A DNA stretch of 64,000 bases from Thermodesulfobacteriota bacterium (GTDB lineage Bacteria; Desulfobacterota_D; UBA1144; Nemesobacterales; Mycalebacteriaceae), in assembly GCA_965205855.1 (NCBI GenBank), contig OZ242184.1, forward strand, positions 800,001 through 864,000. The letters run 5' to 3'. Under the pieces are notes generated by a model. That model was given only the letters and a program-made list of their open reading frames with translations. It was not told the origin of the DNA and made no database searches. The number at the start of each line of letters is the position of its first letter. Position 1 is the first letter of the stretch. Below, one piece after another: positions 19,644-30,165 of this stretch. A program made the translations under genes and the position numbers.

Positions 19644-22600
19644 TTACACTCTCGACTTTTCAGCAAGAGTCGCGGATTCTGTTTCTTCAACCAAAGGCAT
19701 GGGAACGGTATCGTCTTCCACCTCAACTTTGATATTCTTGTACACATCAAGCCCGGTGCCGGCGGGTATGATTTTCCCAATAATGACATTCTCTTTGAGT
19801 CCCTTGAGTTTGTCTTCTTTGCTTTCGCATGCGGCTTCGGTAAGGATTTTCGTTGTTTCCTGAAATGATGCCGCGGAAAGCCAGCTTTCGGTGCTCAAAG
19901 ACGAGCGGGTTATTCCGAGAAGCAATGGCTCCGCAGTGGCGGGGGTTCCATCTTGTTCCTCAACTTCCGCATTTTCTGTGTGGAAAAGGGTTTTTGTTAC
20001 GGCTTCTCCCGGAAGCATCGTTGTGTCTCCGGGGTCTTTGACTTTGACCCTTTTAAGCATCTGCCTCACAATTACTTCTATGTGCTTGTCGTTTATCCTG
20101 ACGCCTTGAAGCTCATACACTTCTTGTATCTCATTCACAAGAAACTCGCTCAGCGCTTTTTCCCCTTTGATTTTGAGAATGTCATGAGGGTTTTCATCGC
20201 CATCCACAAGTTTTTCTCCGGATATTACAAAGTCTCCCTCTCTGACGAGGATATGCTCTCCTCTTGGAACTATGTATTCCTTTTCTTCTCCAATTGTGGG
20301 ACGGACAATGACCCGTCTTTTGCCCTTCACATCCTCACCGAATGACACAGTACCGTCAATTTCACTGACTATTGCAAGATCTTTGGGAATTCGGGCTTCA
20401 AACAGTTCCGCAACTCTTGGCAATCCGCCGGTTATGTCTTTGGTCTTTGCCGTTTCTTTGGGAATTTTGGCAATAATATCTCCGGGCTCCACGGAGTCTC
20501 CTTCGTTTTTCTCAATAAAAGCACCTGTCGGAAGATCTTCGGATTGAAGCGGTTTTTGTTCGGTCTGCTTCTTTGAAATTCCCTCAACGACTATTGCCGG
20601 TTTCAGTTTTGTGTTTTTGGAGTCGGTTACAACTTTCTCAAGCATTCCAGTAACCTCGTCCGCTTGCTCCTTGAAACTTAGCCCGGCTTCAAGATCTCTC
20701 CATTTTACGGTTCCGGTAACCTCCGCAATAATAGGGGTTGTGTAGGGGTCCCATTCCGCAAGAAGGGTTTTCTCCTTAACTCTATCCCCATCTTTAACTT
20801 TCAGTCGGGCACCCAACTCAAGTTTGTGTTTTTCCCTCTCGTATCCCTTTTCATCAACAATCGCAACGCGCCCATTTCTGTTTGTAACAATAAGCACCCC
20901 GCCGCCTGTTTTCACGGTTTCCAGATTGGACATTTTTATTATTCCGGCATAGTTGTTTTCAAGGGTGTTTTCGGTTGCACTCTGACTCGCCGCGCCTCCT
21001 ATGTGGAAGGTCCTCATGGTAAGCTGAGTTCCGGGTTCTCCGATTGATTGCGCTGCCGTTATTCCGACAGCTTCGCCTATATCCACAATTTTGCCGGTGG
21101 AAAGATTTCTTCCGTAGCAAAGTCTGCATATTCCTTCTTCGGTGTCACAAGTCAGGACGGAGCGGATTTTAACTTCACTTATGGAACTTTCATTAATTTT
21201 TTCAGCGGCTTCATTGTCTATTTCTTGTCCCGCTTTGACAATGAGTTCACCCGTGTCTGGATCCTTCAGACTGTCAAGCACAACTCTCCCAAGAACCCTG
21301 TCGCCGACATACTTCCTTATCTTGCCCCCTTCCACCTTATTTGTGTAAAGCAAGCCCTCAATGGTTCCGCAGTTTTCATCTCTGACTATTATGTCATGAG
21401 CCACATCTATCAGTTTTCTTGTAAGATGGCCTGCATTGGCTGTTTTAAGAGCAGTATCGGCAAGACCCTTTCTTGCTCCGTGAGTTGAGATAAAATAGTC
21501 CATCACTTTCATTCCTTCCCTGAAGTTTGATGTAATGGGTTTTTCAATAATAGTGCCGTCCGGTTTTGCCATAAGCCCCCTCATTCCCGCAAGCTGTCTT
21601 ACCTGCGTTTTGCTACCTCGGGCGCCGGAATCAATCATCATATAGATGGGGTTGGAGCTGGTTCCTTGTTTTTGGTTTCCTTTTTCATTTTTAACTGTTT
21701 CAAATTTTATGTTTTCCATCATCTCATCGGCAACTTCATCGCTTGTTTTAGACCAGATGTCCACAATTTTATTGTAGCGCTCGCCGTCTGTTATAAGACC
21801 CTGAGAAAACTGTTCCTGAACTTTCATCTCTTCCGCACGGGCAGCTGCCACAAGCCCTTCCTTGTTGTCGGGAATCTCCATGTCGTTAATTGAAATTGAA
21901 ATTCCGGATTTTGTCGCGTAATAAAACCCGAGAGTTCTTATACGGTCTGCCATAACAACGGTTTGTTTACTACCGTTTTCTCTAAAGCATTTATCCACAA
22001 GAGTCTCGAACTCGCTTTTGCTCATGGGTTTGTTAACAAACTCAAACGGGATGTTTTGAGGGATTGCCTCGTTGTAGAAAATCACCCTTCCAACGGTTGT
22101 TTCAACAACCTCTTCGTTGATTTTTATCTTTACCTGAGAGTGAATCCCGACATAGTCGGAACTGTAAGCCATAATCACTTCCTCCGGAGAGGAAAAATAT
22201 TTGAACTCTTTGCTGTAAGCGGAATCTTTTGTCATATAGTAGATCCCAAGCACAATATCCTGAGTGGGAAGAATAACCGGCTTGCCGTGCGCGGGAGAAA
22301 GTATGTTGTTGGTTGACATAATCAACGCACGGCATTCCGCCTGAGCTTCAATTGAAAGTGGGACATGCACCGCCATCTGGTCACCGTCAAAATCTGCGTT
22401 ATACGCTGGACAAACAAGCGGATGAACTCTGATTGACCTGTCTTCCACAAGCACGGGCTCAAACGCCTGTATACTTAATTTATGGAGAGTGGGAGCGCGG
22501 TTGAGCATAACCATATGCTCCTTGATAACATCGTCAAGAGCGTCCCATACCACGGGGTTTTCAGTTTCAACAAATCTTTTTGCTATTTTAATCGTTGGAG

Positions 22601-24554
22601 CGATGGGACTTCCGTCCTTGTTTTTCCACTCCTGGAGTTTCTGGTAAATAAACGGCTTGAAAAGTTCAAGAGCCATCTGTTTTGGAAGCCCGCACTGGTG
22701 TAGTTTCAGGTCTGGTCCAACCGTGATCACTGAACGTCCCGAATAGTCAACCCTTTTTCCGAGAAGATTCTGGCGGAATCTTCCGCTTTTGCCCTTGATA
22801 ATATCGGTAAGGCTTTTGAGTGGGCGGTGATTATGTCCGACAACGGGTCTTCCTCTTCTCCCGTTCTCAAACAGAGCATCAACGGATTCCTGAAGCATTC
22901 TTTTTTCATTTCTGACAATAATATCGGGCGCATCAAGTTCCAGTAGTCTTTTCAGTCGGTTGTTTCTGTTTATTACCCTTCTGTAAAGCACATTCAAATC
23001 GGAAGTGGCAAAACGTCCGTCGTGAGGAACAAGTGGCCGCAAGTCCGGTGGCAAAACAGGAATTGTAGTAAGAACCATCCATTCGGGACGGTTGGTTGAT
23101 TTGCGGAAGGTCTCACATATCTTGCGTCGTTTTGCTATTTTCGCTTTCTTTAAAAGAGAACTTGACTCCTGCATTTCAATTTTCAATTCTTCGGATAGCG
23201 TTTTCAAGTCAATGCTTTTCAACATTTGATAGACGGCTTCGGCTCCCATTCCATAGCTGTAATCAGTCTCAAAGTTCTCATCCGCTTCAGCAAGAATCTG
23301 AATTTCTTCTTCTTTGAAAACCGCGCTTTTTATAAGCTTGTTAAAATTGTCACGGGATTTTTTTAACTCTGTTTGCGCGTCCGTCAGCTGTTCATGTTCC
23401 TTTTTGAGATGCGGAGGTACGTCCGCATCTCCTTTCTGTTCCAATGTTTTGAGGTTTTTCTCCGCTTTTTTGTAGGCATTTCGCATGGCGGCGTGGTCTT
23501 TGCCCTTACTACCTTTCAGAAGGTTGTCACGGGCTTCCTGGATTGCCTCTTCGGAAGATTCACCGGCATCCGCGGTATTTTCAAGCAAATTTTTGAAAGC
23601 GGTCTGTATCTTCTTGTTGCTTGAAGGAACATCTTCCAATCCAAGGGTTTTGTAATTTTCCGCGAATTTTTCCTCAAATTCTCTTTTGACGGACTTAAAT
23701 GCGTCCTGAGCTTCTTTTATTTTTCCACCGGATTCCATTCCGGTTGACTCGGACACTTTTGCATCATAAGCGGCACGCTCTTTTTCAAAACTTGCCTTGG
23801 CATTCAAAAACGAGGATAGGATCATCTTCGCTTCATTGAGGGAAACGCCATTTTTACCCGTCATTAAAGTCTGCAATGAAAACTTTGTGGCAATTTCCCC
23901 GGGCACTAGATATTTATACCAATAGTTTTTTACCAGAGACGCTTCTTCCTCATCCATCAGCAGTGAAGCCAGACGCTCGGCATCTTCTTCTGTGTTTAAC
24001 TCGGTTAAGAACTCTTCAGGACAAGGCTTAAGAGACGAAATCACATATTCGGCCTCTCTTAGTTTTGACAACTCTTCCTCTGTTAAAGTCTGCCCCATTG
24101 TAAGGGAAGAAGTTCCCGGGTTGTTTACAACATGGGATTCATAATAGAGAACTCTATCAAGGTCCCTGAGACTCATGTCAAGAATCATTCCTATACGACT
24201 GGGAGTGCTACGGAGAAACCATATATGGACGACGGGAGAGGCAAGCTCTATGTGCCCCATTCTTTCACGCCTCAACTTGGAAGTTGTAACCTCCACGCCA
24301 CATTTTTCACAAACAATCCCTCTGTGTTTCAGTCTTTTGTATTTACCGCAGGCGCATTCAAAATCTTTGACGGGGCCAAAAATTTTGGGACAGAAAAGAC
24401 CGTTTTTCTCTGGCTTGAAAGTTCGATAGTTTATGGTCTCGGGTTTCTTAACTTCTCCGTGAGACCATGAGACCATATCTTCGGGAGATGCTATCGATAT
24501 TTGAACTCCCGAGTAAGAGTCCGGTTTGTTTGTTGTAATGTCTTCAAAATCCAC
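19644..24554 (-). CDS. rpoC: RNA polymerase beta' subunit, with large lineage-specific insertion
   Basis: Zn ribbon, [22 protein letters not shown], SI3 region; GTG start with AGGAGG. Confidence 0.98.
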   Translation of the reverse strand: [1636 protein letters not shown]

Positions 24555-24573: not shown

Positions 24574-27500
24574 CTATGTTTTCACCGCACGCAAATCTAA
24601 TTCTTCATCGTTGCTGGAAAGCAAGTCTATTTTCAGTCCGAGTGACTGCAACTCCTTTCTGAGAACATTGAAGGATTCTGGGATTCCCGGGTCAAGAGAC
24701 ATTCTGCCTTCAACTATTGAAGTGAACATTCTTGTCCTGCCCGCCACATCATCCGATTTAACAGTCAAAAATTCCTGAAGCGTGTGTGCGGCGCCGTAAG
24801 CTTCAAGCGCCCAGACTTCCATCTCCCCGAGTCTTTGCCCGCCGTAGTGCGCCTTCCCTCCCAACGGTTGCTGGGTAACAAGCGAGTAAGGGCCTATTGA
24901 GCGCGCGTGTATTTTTTCTTCAACCAAATGGTGGAGTTTCAGCATATACATAATGCCCACCGTTACTTTCTGGTCAAAAGGCTCACCGGTACGTCCGTCA
25001 TACAGAATCATTTTGCCGTCATCGGACAAGCCAGCAATTTTCATAAAACCTTTTATCTCTTTTTCGGTTGCCCCGTCAAAAATGGGAGAAGCGACAGGAA
25101 CCCCGTCTTTGAGGGATTTAACAAAATCACGTGTCTCTTCATCGGTCATCTTGTCTATAAAAGAAACATTCCCGGAATTTCCATAAACCTCTTTCAGTTT
25201 ATTTTTTATCGCATCAGTGCCATAGTTTGTTTCTATGTATTCGTTGAGTTGTTTTCCGATTTCCTTACTTGCCCCGCCCAAATGGGTTTCCAAAATCTGC
25301 CCGACATTCATTCGAGAAGGCACACCGAGAGGATTCAGCACCATATCAACCGGCGTGCCATCTTCCATATAAGGCATGTCCTCTTGGGGAAGAATTCTTG
25401 ATATAACACCTTTGTTTCCATGGCGTCCAGCCATTTTATCGCCTACCTGCAGATTCATTTTAACCGCGACATAGACCTTGACGGTTTTCAAAACGCCCGG
25501 AGAAAGATCATCTTTTTGCTCAAGCTTCTTTTTTTTGTCTTCATATCTGAGTTGAAGGGCGTTTATCTCTCCAATGATTGAATCCACAACAGTCTTGATG
25601 CGCTCGGTTAATTTTTTCGACTCAATCTTTATATTTTTTATCTCCTCAAGAGAAAGTGATTTTAGAATTTCAGAGGTAAAAGAGTCGCCCTTTGAAACAA
25701 GTTTGTTATTTTTTACGGTAACACTCGCAGCCGCTTTTACGCCTTTAAGCAAAGACTCAACCGTCTCACGCGCGCTCTGTTGAAGAATGTTTTTCTCATA
25801 ATCCATTTCCTGTTTGATTTTTTCAACTTCTTGGATTTCAATCTCTTTAGCTCTGGAGTCCTTGTCGGCGACGGCGCGCGAAGTCAGAACCTTCACATCT
25901 ATGACAGTGCCGATAATTGTTGAACGGCTTTTGAGAGAAGTGTCTTTTACGTCTCTGGCTTTGTCTCCAAAGATTGCGCGAAGAAGTTTTTCCTCCTGAG
26001 ACAACTGCATTTCGCCCTTGGGAGATATCTTGCCCACAAGTATGTCTCCCATGTGGACTGTGGCGCCAACCCGGATTATCCCGCTCTCATCAAGATTTTT
26101 GAGAGCCTCATCGCTTATATTTGGAATATCACGCGTTATTTCCTCACGACCGAGTTTTGTCTCCCTCGCCTGACATTCAAACTCCTCAACATGAACCGAT
26201 GTAAAAATATTATCTTTTACAATTCTTTCGCTTATAAGTATCGCATCCTCGAAGTTGTATCCACCCCAAGGCATAAAAGCCACCATGGTATTTTGACCCA
26301 GCGCAAGCTCACCGTTTTTAGTGGAAGGCCCGTCCGCGATAACTTGTCCTTTTTTAATTTTCTGTCCTCTTAAAACAATAGGAGTCTGATTCCAGCAAGT
26401 GCCCTGATTGGACTTCCGGAATTTGATCATCTTGTATATTTCTACTCCCGAACCCGATGAAGGTATGGATCTCTGCGATGCTTTGCTGTTTTTAACCACT
26501 ATAATTTTTGAATCGGAGTGAATCACTTCGCCGTCCGCTCTCGCTATAACGGCAACACCCGAATCTCTGGAAACTGATGCTTCAAGTCCCGTCCCGACAA
26601 GCGGAGCGACCGCCCTTATAAGCGGAGCCGCTTGACGTTGCATATTTGAACCCATAAGAGCCCTGTTCGCGTCATCATGTTCAAGAAAAGGTATCAGAGA
26701 AGCCGAGATTGAAACCAGCTGAGAAGGTGAAACATCCATATGGGTAACCTTGTCTTTTTCCACCATTTTTATCTCACCCTCGGAACGAGACGAAACAAAA
26801 TCCAGTTGAAACCGTCCATCACCATCAAGGGGAGCGTTTGCCTGAGCAATAACTATATTTTTTTCCTCTTCTTCAAGGGCACTCATTTTAACTATTTCAT
26901 CTGTTACTTTGCCGTTGCGGACAATTCTGTAAGGAGCCCTGATGAAACCGTAGACATCAATCTCCGCATATGTGCTCATGCTTGATATAAGACCGATATT
27001 GGGGCCTTCGGGCGTTTCAACGGGGCATATCCGTCCGTAGTGGGAAGAATGGACATCGCGGACGGCAAAACCCGCTCTTTCTCTAGTAAGTCCCTTGGGA
27101 CCCAGAGCGCTGAGCCGCCTTTTGTGAGTTATTTCCGAGAGAGGATTTGTCTGGTCCATAAATTGCGAAAGCTGGCCTGTTTTGAAAAAGTCTTTGACTA
27201 TGGTGTCTACTACTTTGGGCACAACTATTTCTCTCGGCATCTTGTTCTCAATACTCTGATAACCTATTCTTTCCTTTACAGATCTGGCGAATCTCTCGAG
27301 ACCACTGTAAAAAGTGGCTTCTATCAACTCTCCGACAGTTTTAACTCTGCGGTTTCCCAGATGGTCTATGTCGTCTCCAGATCTGCGTCCGCCCTTAAGC
27401 TCAAGCAGATATTGCAATGTTTTTACTATGTCTTCTCTTGTTAATGTAAGGATTGCCTCATCTACATTGTGTTTAAGCCTGTAGTTGAGTTTTTTCCTTC

Positions 27501-29016
27501 CGACTTTTGACAGCCTGTATTTGGAAGGATTGAAAAACATGTCCGAAAAAAAAGTTCTCGCGGACTCTTTGCTCGGCGGATCGGTCGGCCGGAATTTTCT
27601 GTATATCTCCGCTATTGCCCCATCGCAGAAAACCTCGATTTCTGCGCCGATTTTACGAAAGCCGTTTCTAATATCATCTGCGGCTTCGGATGTCAGGTTT
27701 TCAAAGCATATTTTCTCTTCGGCCTTTGTTTTTCCCTTTGTTACGGAAGGGTAAGTTTTTGACATGGTTTTCAGGATTTTAAAAAACGCGGATTTATCAG
27801 CCTTGCCCTGCTGAACATTTACGGCGAAGGTATGGTTGATTGAATCACCATAAATCCTTTTTTCTTCAAGCAGGGTATCCGCCACCGCAGAAGGAATTGA
27901 AATATCGTCAATATAGTAAAAGGAAAATTTATCCACTGAATTTTGCCTGATGGCATTGATGGTCTCAGACGTTATCTTCTCTCCAAAGCGCGCAATTATC
28001 TCACCGCTTTTTTTGTTGACAATATTTTCGGCGCATATCTTTTCATAGAGTTCAGATTCGTTTTCAAGTAGCACCGTGTCTATTTTTAAGTTTCTCAGTC
28101 TCTCAAGAATACTCGGCGTAAACTTTCTTCTCTTTTTTAGAACAACCTCATTTCCTCTCTTTATATCAAAGGAGCTTTTCTGATAAAGAATCGTCTCAGG
28201 ATTTATCTCTTTTGACAGCCCGCCGTTTTTTTCAAACCTGACCGTTTCAATACTGTAGAAATGATCCAGTATCTCCCTCTCGGTATATCCTAGGGCTTTA
28301 AGAAAAAGAGAGATATGGAATTTTTTTCTACGATCAATCCGCACATTGAGAAAGTTTTTTGAATCAAAATCAAAATCAAGCCATTTGCCATCTTGAGGAA
28401 TAACCCTTGCAACAGAGGACGATTTGACGGAGGACTGAGGCTGGTCGCCAAGTTTTGGACTATCAAACAATACACCGGGGGAACGATGTATCTGATTTAC
28501 AATTACCCTTTCGGCGCCGCTTATTATGAAGGAGCCATTTTCGGTCATCTTGGGAATTTCACCGAAATAGACATCCTGTTCAATTACATCCCGGATATTC
28601 TCTCCATCTTCTTCCCGCACTATCAGACGCAACGTAACATAGAGCGAAACCGTATAGTCGTAGCCCTTAAGTCTGCATTCAGTCTCGTCAAGCCTGGGTT
28701 GTAAATCATAAATTTCGTGTCCGTTTTTGTCTTTGACGGCATTTCCATCTTCATCAACAACTCTTTGTCCTAGACTGTAGTGCACAAAATCAAGCGATGT
28801 TTTTTCACCATAATTCTCTATGGGAAAGATTGCCTTAAACACAGATTGCAATCCGTAATCTCCCCTTTGGGAACGTTTTTCAGACTCCACTTTTTCCTGA
28901 AGAAATCTCTTATAGGACTCAGTTTGGACATTCAAAAGATTCGGAATATCCAGAATTGCCGGTATTTTTGAAAAAGTCTTTCTCAATTTAGAACTATGCG
29001 TTGTTTGCAAACTCAA
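24574..29016 (-). CDS. rpoB: RNA polymerase beta subunit, with L7/L12-CTD-like insertion
   Basis: SQFMDQTNPLSEITHKRR, GDKMAGRHGNKG, GQRLGEMEVWAL motifs; likely TTG start at 29016 after GGAGG. Confidence 0.98.
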   Translation of the reverse strand: MSLQTTHSSKLRKTFSKIPAILDIPNLLNVQTESYKRFLQEKVESEKRSQRGDYGLQSVFKAIFPIENYGEKTSLDFVHYSLGQRVVDEDGNAVKDKNGHEIYDLQPRLDETECRLKGYDYTVSLYVTLRLIVREEDGENIRDVIEQDVYFGEIPKMTENGSFIISGAERVIVNQIHRSPGVLFDSPKLGDQPQSSVKSSSVARVIPQDGKWLDFDFDSKNFLNVRIDRRKKFHISLFLKALGYTEREILDHFYSIETVRFEKNGGLSKEINPETILYQKSSFDIKRGNEVVLKKRRKFTPSILERLRNLKIDTVLLENESELYEKICAENIVNKKSGEIIARFGEKITSETINAIRQNSVDKFSFYYIDDISIPSAVADTLLEEKRIYGDSINHTFAVNVQQGKADKSAFFKILKTMSKTYPSVTKGKTKAEEKICFENLTSEAADDIRNGFRKIGAEIEVFCDGAIAEIYRKFRPTDPPSKESARTFFSDMFFNPSKYRLSKVGRKKLNYRLKHNVDEAILTLTREDIVKTLQYLLELKGGRRSGDDIDHLGNRRVKTVGELIEATFYSGLERFARSVKERIGYQSIENKMPREIVVPKVVDTIVKDFFKTGQLSQFMDQTNPLSEITHKRRLSALGPKGLTRERAGFAVRDVHSSHYGRICPVETPEGPNIGLISSMSTYAEIDVYGFIRAPYRIVRNGKVTDEIVKMSALEEEEKNIVIAQANAPLDGDGRFQLDFVSSRSEGEIKMVEKDKVTHMDVSPSQLVSISASLIPFLEHDDANRALMGSNMQRQAAPLIRAVAPLVGTGLEASVSRDSGVAVIARADGEVIHSDSKIIVVKNSKASQRSIPSSGSGVEIYKMIKFRKSNQGTCWNQTPIVLRGQKIKKGQVIADGPSTKNGELALGQNTMVAFMPWGGYNFEDAILISERIVKDNIFTSVHVEEFECQARETKLGREEITRDIPNISDEALKNLDESGIIRVGATVHMGDILVGKISPKGEMQLSQEEKLLRAIFGDKARDVKDTSLKSRSTIIGTVIDVKVLTSRAVADKDSRAKEIEIQEVEKIKQEMDYEKNILQQSARETVESLLKGVKAAASVTVKNNKLVSKGDSFTSEILKSLSLEEIKNIKIESKKLTERIKTVVDSIIGEINALQLRYEDKKKKLEQKDDLSPGVLKTVKVYVAVKMNLQVGDKMAGRHGNKGVISRILPQEDMPYMEDGTPVDMVLNPLGVPSRMNVGQILETHLGGASKEIGKQLNEYIETNYGTDAIKNKLKEVYGNSGNVSFIDKMTDEETRDFVKSLKDGVPVASPIFDGATEKEIKGFMKIAGLSDDGKMILYDGRTGEPFDQKVTVGIMYMLKLHHLVEEKIHARSIGPYSLVTQQPLGGKAHYGGQRLGEMEVWALEAYGAAHTLQEFLTVKSDDVAGRTRMFTSIVEGRMSLDPGIPESFNVLRKELQSLGLKIDLLSSNDEELDLRAVKT

Positions 29017-29093
29017 TATATCAACCCCTCCGAAGCCCGAAACGGGCAAACGAGATACAATAAAAACAAAGCGACCGGAGCAAAGAGCAACTC

Positions 29094-29486
29094 TTAACTC
29101 AGTTCCACAGTGGCGCCGGCTTCTTCAAATTTCTTTTTTAACTCTTCCGCCTCTTCTTTTTTTAGCCCATTTTTAATAAGTTTCGGGGCACTTTCAACGA
29201 GCTCTTTTGATTCCTTAAGGCCAAGAGAAGACACTTCTCTGACAACCTTAATAACCTGAATTTTGTTTGACCCGATATCTTTAAGAGTAAGGTCAAACTC
29301 CGTTTTCTCACCCCCCTCTGCGGCTTCTTCACCTTGCGCGCCGGCGGCTGGTGCCGCGGCAACCGCAAACTGAGGAGCGGCCTTGATATCAAACTTTTCC
29401 TCTATCTCTTTAATGAGATCTGATATCTCCATCATGCTTGCTTTCTCAAGGTAGTTGATTACCTCTTCTTTTGTTAAATCAGCCAT
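29094..29486 (-). CDS. rplL: 50S ribosomal protein L7/L12
   Basis: [34 protein letters not shown]; start MADLTKEE. Confidence 0.97.
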
Positions 29487-30165
29487 CGCTGTTTTCCTCC
29501 TTTTTATTTTGATTGTCTGAAGATTGTTCAGTTTCGTTTTCCATCGGTACTTTACTCTGTTCATTTTCATCTACTTTCATTTCGGTCTTTCCGTTTTTCG
29601 CGGCCGCCCCGCTTCTGCCTTCCTCAGGGTTATCCGAAATTTCCCCGGATTCTTTTGCCCGCCTCAGCGCCTCAAGAGAATGAACAAACCCAGAACGCAT
29701 CTGGTCCATAACAGACACAAAGTTTGAAAGCGGAGTCAGAAGAGTTGAAGCAAACATTGATATGAGAACCTTTCTTGAAGGCAGTTTTGATATTTGCTCA
29801 ATATCAGCGGCTTCGCACACCTTGCCATCCATGAGTCCGCCTTTAAGAACAAAATCTTCAAATTCTTTGTGCGCTTGAATAAAAACCTTTGCTGTAGCCG
29901 GAAATTCTTGACCGCATATTGCAATCGCTGTCGGCCCTTCAAAAAGGTTTTTGATTTTTTCCACATCAGTGCCTTCACAAGCCTTGTGAAGAAGCTTGTT
30001 CTTAACAACACGCAACTCTGCATCAGTCTCCTTCACTTGCCTTCTGACCGACTGCATACTCTTAACTCCAAGCCCTCTGTATTCAATTACAAGAACTGAA
30101 GCCGGACCTTTGAAAATAACCGCAAGTTCGTCGATGGTTTTCTTTTTTTCTTGTTTTGTTTGCAC
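29479..30165 (-). CDS. rplJ: 50S ribosomal protein L10, with C-terminal extension
   Basis: YRGL, VVKNKL, GPTAIA, LPSR motifs; operon position. Confidence 0.94.

Follow-up and report, generated by a model that had tools for sequence, protein, structure and literature searches.

A probable ribosomal protein bL12-derived domain in the RNA polymerase beta lobe of a Thermodesulfobacteriota genus

The rpoB locus and its insertion

We describe an insertion in rpoB, the gene for the RNA polymerase beta subunit, from a Thermodesulfobacteriota bacterium with a small genome. The window, that is, the whole stretch of DNA analyzed, comprises 64,000 nucleotides (nt) of contig OZ242184.1 (assembly GCA_965205855.1, positions 800,001–864,000 of the forward strand), and coordinates below refer to it. 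Gene order at the locus is the usual one: tuf, nusG, rplK, rplA, rplJ, rplL, rpoB, rpoC. The rpoB gene (24574..29049, minus strand) comprises 1491 codons from a TTG. Its assignment draws on the list of open reading frames (ORFs), the translation, Pfam and the PDB, with six Rpb2 Pfam domains (E values from 1e-130 to 7e-19) and PDB beta subunits at E = 0. Because the database version of this RpoB (P0004) has 1470 amino acids (aa), the true start may lie 21 codons downstream of the TTG. Directly upstream, across a 44-nt gap, is rplL (29094..29489, minus strand), which encodes ribosomal protein bL12 and matches both PF00542 (E 6e-28) and PF16320 (E 4e-13). The C-terminal domain (CTD) of rplL, at 29097–29297 on the minus strand, is the proposed donor of the RpoB insert.

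The insert lies in the beta2, or lobe, domain and spans 75 residues (aa 399–473 in P0001 numbering; 27631..27855, minus strand). The original prediction, made from the letters of the window, had claimed about 75 extra residues in the lobe. Alignment bears this out: between residues 359 and 369 of the best solved chain, 7f0r_C, the query runs from aa 394 to aa 478. The insert falls in a gap of solved beta chains, and a short loop takes its place in 24 of 24 rpoBs from seven other families of the order. Within the insert, a 66-residue core (aa 408–473; 27631..27828, minus strand) aligns end to end with the bL12 CTD. The minus-strand reading of 27631–27828 yields exactly the 66 residues quoted in that prediction, and the plus strand contains a stop.

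Upstream of the insert, the alignment of the query continues across the SI1/beta-i4 region of proteobacteria. In E. coli, beta-i4/SI1 lies in beta2 and its C-terminal connector rejoins at residues 337–345, according to passages of PMC2939025; the insert is positioned a few residues past this connector. Downstream, aa 478 of the query falls opposite residue 362 of E. coli beta. Since the gate-loop deletion of the NusG literature corresponds to beta R368–P376 (in a passage of PMC5100998), the equivalent gate loop here is aa 484–492 (27574..27600, minus strand), starting 10 residues past the insert's end. By this mapping through E. coli beta, the insert lies in a surface loop of beta2, between the SI1/beta-i4-like region and the helix leading into the gate loop. 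The E. coli beta-i4/SI1 element resembles it in being an in-frame domain in a beta2 surface loop, found in one lineage and flanked by conserved sequence.

A 136-residue piece searched against 41 genomes, comprising the window's own and its relatives, has full-length matches in five, namely the genome of the window and all but one of the genus's five others. In the remaining one (G005), rplL is at the very edge of a contig, so rpoB is unassembled there. The piece matches only the conserved flank after the insert in 33 of the 41 genomes, and three have no match. We aligned 31 sequences, made up of 29 locus fragments and two database proteins, with the 114-aa fragment L021 left out beforehand. 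In this alignment the carriers are L001–L005, P0005 (the same as L003, from G002) and P0006. In total, the insert is carried by the five same-genus genomes with rpoB assembled and by one metagenome protein, P0006, and these provide a set of six distinct, closely related sequences with an effective number of sequences (Neff) of about 2.2. Scans of genome and metagenome contigs, and searches of two protein libraries by word index and by exhaustive profile, found no members beyond the genus, P0005 and P0006. One further record, L094, duplicates the insert of G003. Another, a U32-type peptidase-like ORF on a Ruminococcus-titled contig (L063:2632-3861, plus strand), contains ...GAEIEVFCHGAI, nearly identical to the insert-beta junction, and we judged it a chance match. 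Because the insert is in frame and conserved in four other genomes of the genus and two further database proteins, it is not an assembly artefact. It is an in-frame, lineage-specific addition to beta, limited to a single lineage and bordered by conserved sequence.

Among the five genus sequences, the proportion of nonsynonymous differences (pN) in the insert is 0.33–0.47 and that of synonymous differences (pS) is 0.72–0.90, with pN below pS in all 10 pairs; as these pS values show synonymous sites to be saturated, pN and pS were compared in place of dN/dS. Amino acid identity is 35%–52% in the insert as against 80%–83% in the rest of the ∼1000-residue beta fragment, and the insert evolves about 4-fold faster than the remainder of beta. 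By these measures the insert is kept under purifying selection that is looser than on the core enzyme. Its GC content (41.9%) resembles that of rpoB (43.3%) and gives no sign of a foreign DNA source.

Similarity to the bL12 C-terminal domain

In the gapless alignment of the 66-residue core with the genome's own L12 CTD, we recomputed the 13 identities reported in the original prediction and obtained a BLOSUM62 sum of 56. Among 20,000 composition-preserving shuffles, 13 identities were reached in 32 and a sum of 56 in none. Insert and bL12 CTD also share the ending ...G-A-x-[VI]-E-[VL] and a length of 66–68 residues.

Profile comparisons extend this likeness. Searching 177,635 distinct PDB sequences with a hidden Markov model (HMM) built from the six inserts gave 15 matches at E ≤ 10, of which 11, including the entire top 10, are L7/L12 chains. 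The best match (E 6.2e-4, 23.6 bits) places profile positions 12–78 on residues 6–73 of 1ctf, the whole domain. Against 22 L12 CTDs of the order, hhalign returned a probability of 85.3% in local and 67.2% in global mode (P 6e-6, score 31.4), with a local alignment of 28 columns. None of 200 column shuffles reached this score (mean 10.1, maximum 19.9), and the reversed alignment scored 8.3. A second run, the tool's own, gave 75.9%, E 2.3e-5 and 63 columns, and P ranged from 6e-6 to 2e-5 over the runs. In the bacterium's own genome (13,102 six-frame ORFs), L12 was the top non-self match of the insert HMM, over HMM positions 2–63, with E 0.11 against E 3.3 for the next.

The insert profile was also compared with 1.84 billion representative proteins, giving five matches at E ≤ 1e-3. 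Three of them (P0008, P0009 and P0010) are non-ribosomal metagenome proteins that consist of 2 to ∼7 tandem L12 CTDs joined by Pro/Ala-rich linkers, and these are the sole non-artefact significant matches in this library. A feature search of the ESM Atlas placed PF00542 on the first and third clusters (scores 0.84 and 0.78), below the level of a hit and of value as a lead only. Considered together, these profile comparisons indicate that homology of the insert to the bL12 CTD is statistically supported over the full length, and on this sequence evidence we regard a bL12 origin as likely.

Several observations weigh against this reading. BLASTP found no alignment between the insert and the genome's own L12 at E ≤ 100. 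The original prediction had proposed a search with PF00542, and its outcome was not significant: the window's insert scores 12.7–13.4 bits (E 0.1–0.17), below the Pfam cut-off of 25.9, and PF00542 is listed at E ≤ 10 for just one of the six inserts. In a genome-wide six-frame scan with PF00542, a UvrB-like strand-helix-strand segment outside the window (G000:C1:424320-424433, plus strand) reached 13.9 bits, above the 12.6 bits of the insert. Since this segment outscores the insert, part of the PF00542 signal is a generic motif of acidic helix, Gly and strand. The signal, moreover, stems mainly from 28 columns at the C-terminal end. With a profile built from the C-terminal half, L12 is the top non-self match in the genome (E 0.34); the N-terminal half yields no match there (L12 at rank 1723) or in the PDB. 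The family is small and its members closely related, and the two remaining large-library matches are low-complexity tandem repeats, which inflate such scores. The insert of G001 matches EFG_III (PF14492) over 51 residues with 19.6 bits and E 9.4e-4, relative to a cut-off of 27 bits; the other five inserts have no match to this family. The UvrB-like segment is, in its own right, a useful negative control for how generic the L12 C-terminal motif is.

These points lend some weight to a different origin, in which the insert would be an ordinary ferredoxin-like domain, akin to EF-G domain III or to ACT/PII domains or of untraceable descent, that came to resemble L12 by convergence on an acidic helix, a Gly-Ala pair and a strand ending. 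The EFG_III match in one of six inserts, the UvrB segment that scores as well as the insert, and the N-terminal half with no signal of its own would all fit such a domain. The link to EF-G disappears, however, when profiles are compared: against 28 EF-G and LepA domains III of these genomes, hhalign assigned a probability of 1.4%, and the score, 14.3, fell among those of the shuffles, so we set this kinship aside. The PDB sequence search that returned 11 L7/L12 chains at E ≤ 10 returned no EF-G, LepA, TetM, ACT or PII chain, the alignment to L12 is collinear from end to end, and the pair of Phe and Leu states detailed below is common to the insert and the genus's own L12 only. We consider convergence from another source rather unlikely. 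Pfam identifies the PF16320 dimerization domain in rplL and not in rpoB, where the insert is flanked solely by Rpb2 domains.

Predicted fold and the factor-binding face

AlphaFold2 (AF2), run on the six-sequence alignment, models the insert as strand, helix, strand, strand, helix, strand with a predicted local distance difference test (pLDDT) score of 77.9. This is a four-stranded ferredoxin-like beta-alpha-beta-beta-alpha-beta fold in which two helices pack on the sheet, whereas the L12 CTD, modeled as a control, is beta-alpha-alpha-beta-alpha-beta. Placed in the hhalign register, the two models agree in all but one of six secondary-structure elements, the exception being the second helix of L12.

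Predicted strand 1 (aa 407–413; 27811..27831, minus strand) corresponds to strand 1 of the L12 CTD, as judged from the AF2 models of insert and L12 and the hhalign register. Predicted helix 1 (aa 419–432; 27754..27795, minus strand) corresponds to the first L12 helix and carries an A-x-K...K pattern, invariant in all six inserts, that stands opposite A63, K65 and K70 of E. coli L12. It is followed by a variable stretch (aa 433–444; 27718..27753, minus strand) in the place of the second L12 helix, predicted to form a short strand (aa 436–440) and a turn. This element, which differs from L12, has the lowest confidence within the domain (mean pLDDT of 66 over a 10-residue block), and its length differs among relatives, being ∼33 residues longer in P0006. 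The C-terminal strand-helix-strand (aa 445–476; 27622..27717, minus strand) bears most of the similarity to L12, including the 28-column hhalign alignment, the C-terminal-half profile signal and 8 identities in 28 positions. As a separate observation, the extra residues of P0006, a 1647-aa metagenome RpoB, lie nested in the variable loop at about residues 425–470 and make an insertion within the insertion; a protein search found no relatives of this nested piece.

Strand 1, helix 1, strand 2, helix 3 and strand 3 of the bL12 CTD (1ctf) are thus predicted in the same order and register in the insert. The two differ in that L12 has a three-stranded ClpS-like sheet and the insert four predicted strands, with the variable hairpin replacing the GLKEAK second-helix region. 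They also differ in context, as bL12 has an N-terminal dimerization domain and a hinge and is tethered to L10, while the insert has neither and is embedded in beta. Fold matches listed for the insert model are ferredoxin-like, and ferredoxin-like alpha/beta sandwiches (designed ferredoxin folds, PII/SbtB, ACT, CutA) are among the systems closest to it. No L12 or ClpS chain appears among the 50 fold matches listed, though a longer list could hold them. Insert and L12 folds are nonetheless structural neighbors, because 15 of the 50 entries listed for the L12 model are also on the insert's list. The simplest reading of the models is that an L12-type domain lost its second helix, gained an edge strand and became a regular ferredoxin-like sandwich.

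The six regular elements of the model, and its confidence, also argue against a third account, in which the likeness to L12 would be due to chance and the insert would be either an assembly error or an expanded loop that evolves fast and is essentially without structure. Searches with single sequences are indeed not significant. Against this, the reading frame and the hydrophobic pattern are kept in six distinct sequences from separate assemblies, pN is lower than pS in every pair, and the profile statistics speak against chance. We hold this account to be extremely improbable.

The E. coli L12 CTD binds factors through residues of helices 1 and 2, namely K65, V66, I69, K70, R73 and K84. In the gapless register, with numbering taken from the 1ctf alignment, the window's insert has Lys opposite K65, K70, R73 and K84 and Ser and Phe opposite V66 and I69, just as first reported. 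Across the six inserts, Lys is fixed opposite K65 and K70, the residues opposite V66, I69 and R73 vary, and the K84 equivalence falls in the variable-length stretch, which does not align from insert to insert. A conserved factor-binding face like that of the L12 CTD was not found in the inserts, in which the second-helix region is absent or variable in length. Half of the GTPase-binding face would thus be gone and the rest partly conserved.

These residues bear on the idea that the insert is a working stalk mimic, one that binds EF-G, EF-Tu, IF2 or the ribosome and links transcription to translation. The likely L12 ancestry and the two invariant lysines would suit it, as would a far better preserved L12 CTD in the beta subunit of another genus of the order (see below). 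The L12 CTD is, in addition, the shared binding site of IF2, EF-Tu, EF-G and RF3, as stated in a passage of PMC10931766. What makes such a mimic very unlikely is the loss of the second-helix equivalent and its variation in length, the lack of conservation opposite V66 and I69, a net charge that ranges from −6 to +3 among relatives, and the 4-fold faster evolution of the domain. When the insert was modeled in complex with the EF-G of this genome (G and G′ domains), the prediction scored 0.01 relative to a mark of 0.32, and this counts as evidence neither way. A nucleic-acid-binding role was dropped, as the net charge is not conserved.

The insert was originally described as a diverged stalk domain displayed on the polymerase surface. 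This stands insofar as the insert is a real in-frame module whose family profile specifically recognizes the bL12 CTD; it does not stand for the fold, which is predicted to differ, or for the factor-binding face, half of which is replaced. Because the second helix, which makes up that half, has given way to a variable hairpin, "stalk domain" names the likely source of the insert, not an established function. The tests made here support that origin; the function is inferred.

Origin of the insert and a second case in the order

The source of the domain can be narrowed by comparing L12s within the order. The insert HMM scores 22.1, 18.5, 17.3, 14.1 and 13.6 bits on the genus's own L12 CTDs and 5.8–17.8 bits on 17 L12s of other families. 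All six inserts and all five genus L12s have a Phe in the last helix at a position where each of the 17 other-family L12s has Leu. At the start of the last helix, Leu is found in 5/6 inserts, 5/5 genus L12s and 2/17 others. The sequences behind these counts are related to one another and the counts are thus not independent. The shared Phe and Leu states suggest capture from rplL, an event that probably took place in the genus ancestor with this neighboring gene as donor. Since rplL sits directly upstream of rpoB, the origin that needs the fewest assumptions is that part of rplL was duplicated into rpoB.

A second L12 CTD, this one unmistakable and a precedent for such a capture, occurs inside the rpoB frames of G014 and G024, two genomes of another genus (g10, family f3) of the same order. 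Here PF00542 matches with 47 bits and E of about 1e-12 (records L055:1-1458, minus strand, and L025 for G014; L014 and L058 for G024). Compared with the L12 of the same organism, the embedded domain shows 46% identity (E 2e-14), and its second helix is retained. Among 120 genomes of the class, PF00542 was found within rpoB-sized frames in G014 and G024 only. A word-index search of long proteins added a database protein, P0012, that is 91% identical and has PF00542 among its precomputed domains. The domain is located in N-terminal beta1, at about residues 112–120 of 7f0r_C and just before the conserved ...IKEQEVYFG, a stretch near the Mfd/Tudor-domain docking site.

Both genera therefore have an L12 CTD-type domain in beta, and in both rplL is the upstream neighbor of rpoB. 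The g10 domain differs from the insert in its site, in being far less diverged, and in passing PF00542. The insert HMM gives it 11.9 bits, no better than ordinary L12s, and since the sites also differ, the insert (genus g1) and the G014-type domain look like independent captures. A bolder proposal would be that the stalk's factor-recruiting domain passed from rplL into the polymerase on two occasions and that both copies still bind translational GTPases or the ribosome, providing a hard-wired coupling independent of NusG. We think this most improbable.

A diverged bL12 CTD that was captured from rplL, remodeled, and now serves as a surface module is the best explanation of the data as a whole, and a probable one. 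The domain would have been copied from the adjacent gene into the beta2 surface loop in the genus ancestor, keeping the five elements aligned above and exchanging the second helix for a hairpin. The predicted outcome of this remodeling is an independently folding, four-stranded ferredoxin-like sandwich. It may now work as a lineage-specific surface module at the rim of the DNA cleft, near the docking site of NusG and sigma region 2. There it would most likely act as a docking or steric element that tunes contacts with factors or DNA, in place of a working copy of the stalk.

Lineage-specific insertion in beta is of a known kind; ribosomal L12 is an unusual source for a polymerase insertion. 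In passages of PMC2939025 and PMC11515920, described beta inserts are recurrent all-beta modules (BBM2/SBHM, or "BEAN" and "HABAS"), in contrast to the predicted alpha/beta, L12-like fold of the present insert, and "L12" does not occur in PMC11515920. Ribosomal-protein topologies rank with the most depleted as inserts in a 2026 survey of inserted domains (passages of PMC13114784). Our full-text literature searches returned no description of an L12-type insert in beta, and an earlier mention in Lane and Darst 2010 (two papers), in Iyer et al. 2004 or in supplements is possible.

The insert thus places a probable bL12-derived domain in the beta lobe, beside the gate loop where NusG and sigma act. 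The two L12-type cases suggest that a gene can acquire a domain more than once from the gene upstream of it in the operon, and together they would form a natural before-and-after pair for the remodeling of a captured domain from helix to hairpin. Should either copy still bind translation factors, it would represent a new mode of transcription-translation coupling.

Other features of the locus were noted in passing. RpoB has a second extra segment of ∼22 residues (aa 96–117; window about 28699–28764, minus strand) with no counterpart in 7f0r_C. The neighboring rpoC (19644–24554, minus strand) encodes 1636 residues and is much longer than the E. coli subunit. Its match to Rpb1 domain 1 is split in two, the best stretch starting from aa 410, and this sequence pattern implies a large N-terminal lineage-specific insertion. 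In the 234-residue product of the L10 ORF (29479–30183, minus strand; putative TTG start), the Pfam L10 domain covers aa 9–103, which leaves a long tail. As the tail of L10 is the part that carries L12 dimers, the stalk of this bacterium may hold more than two of them.

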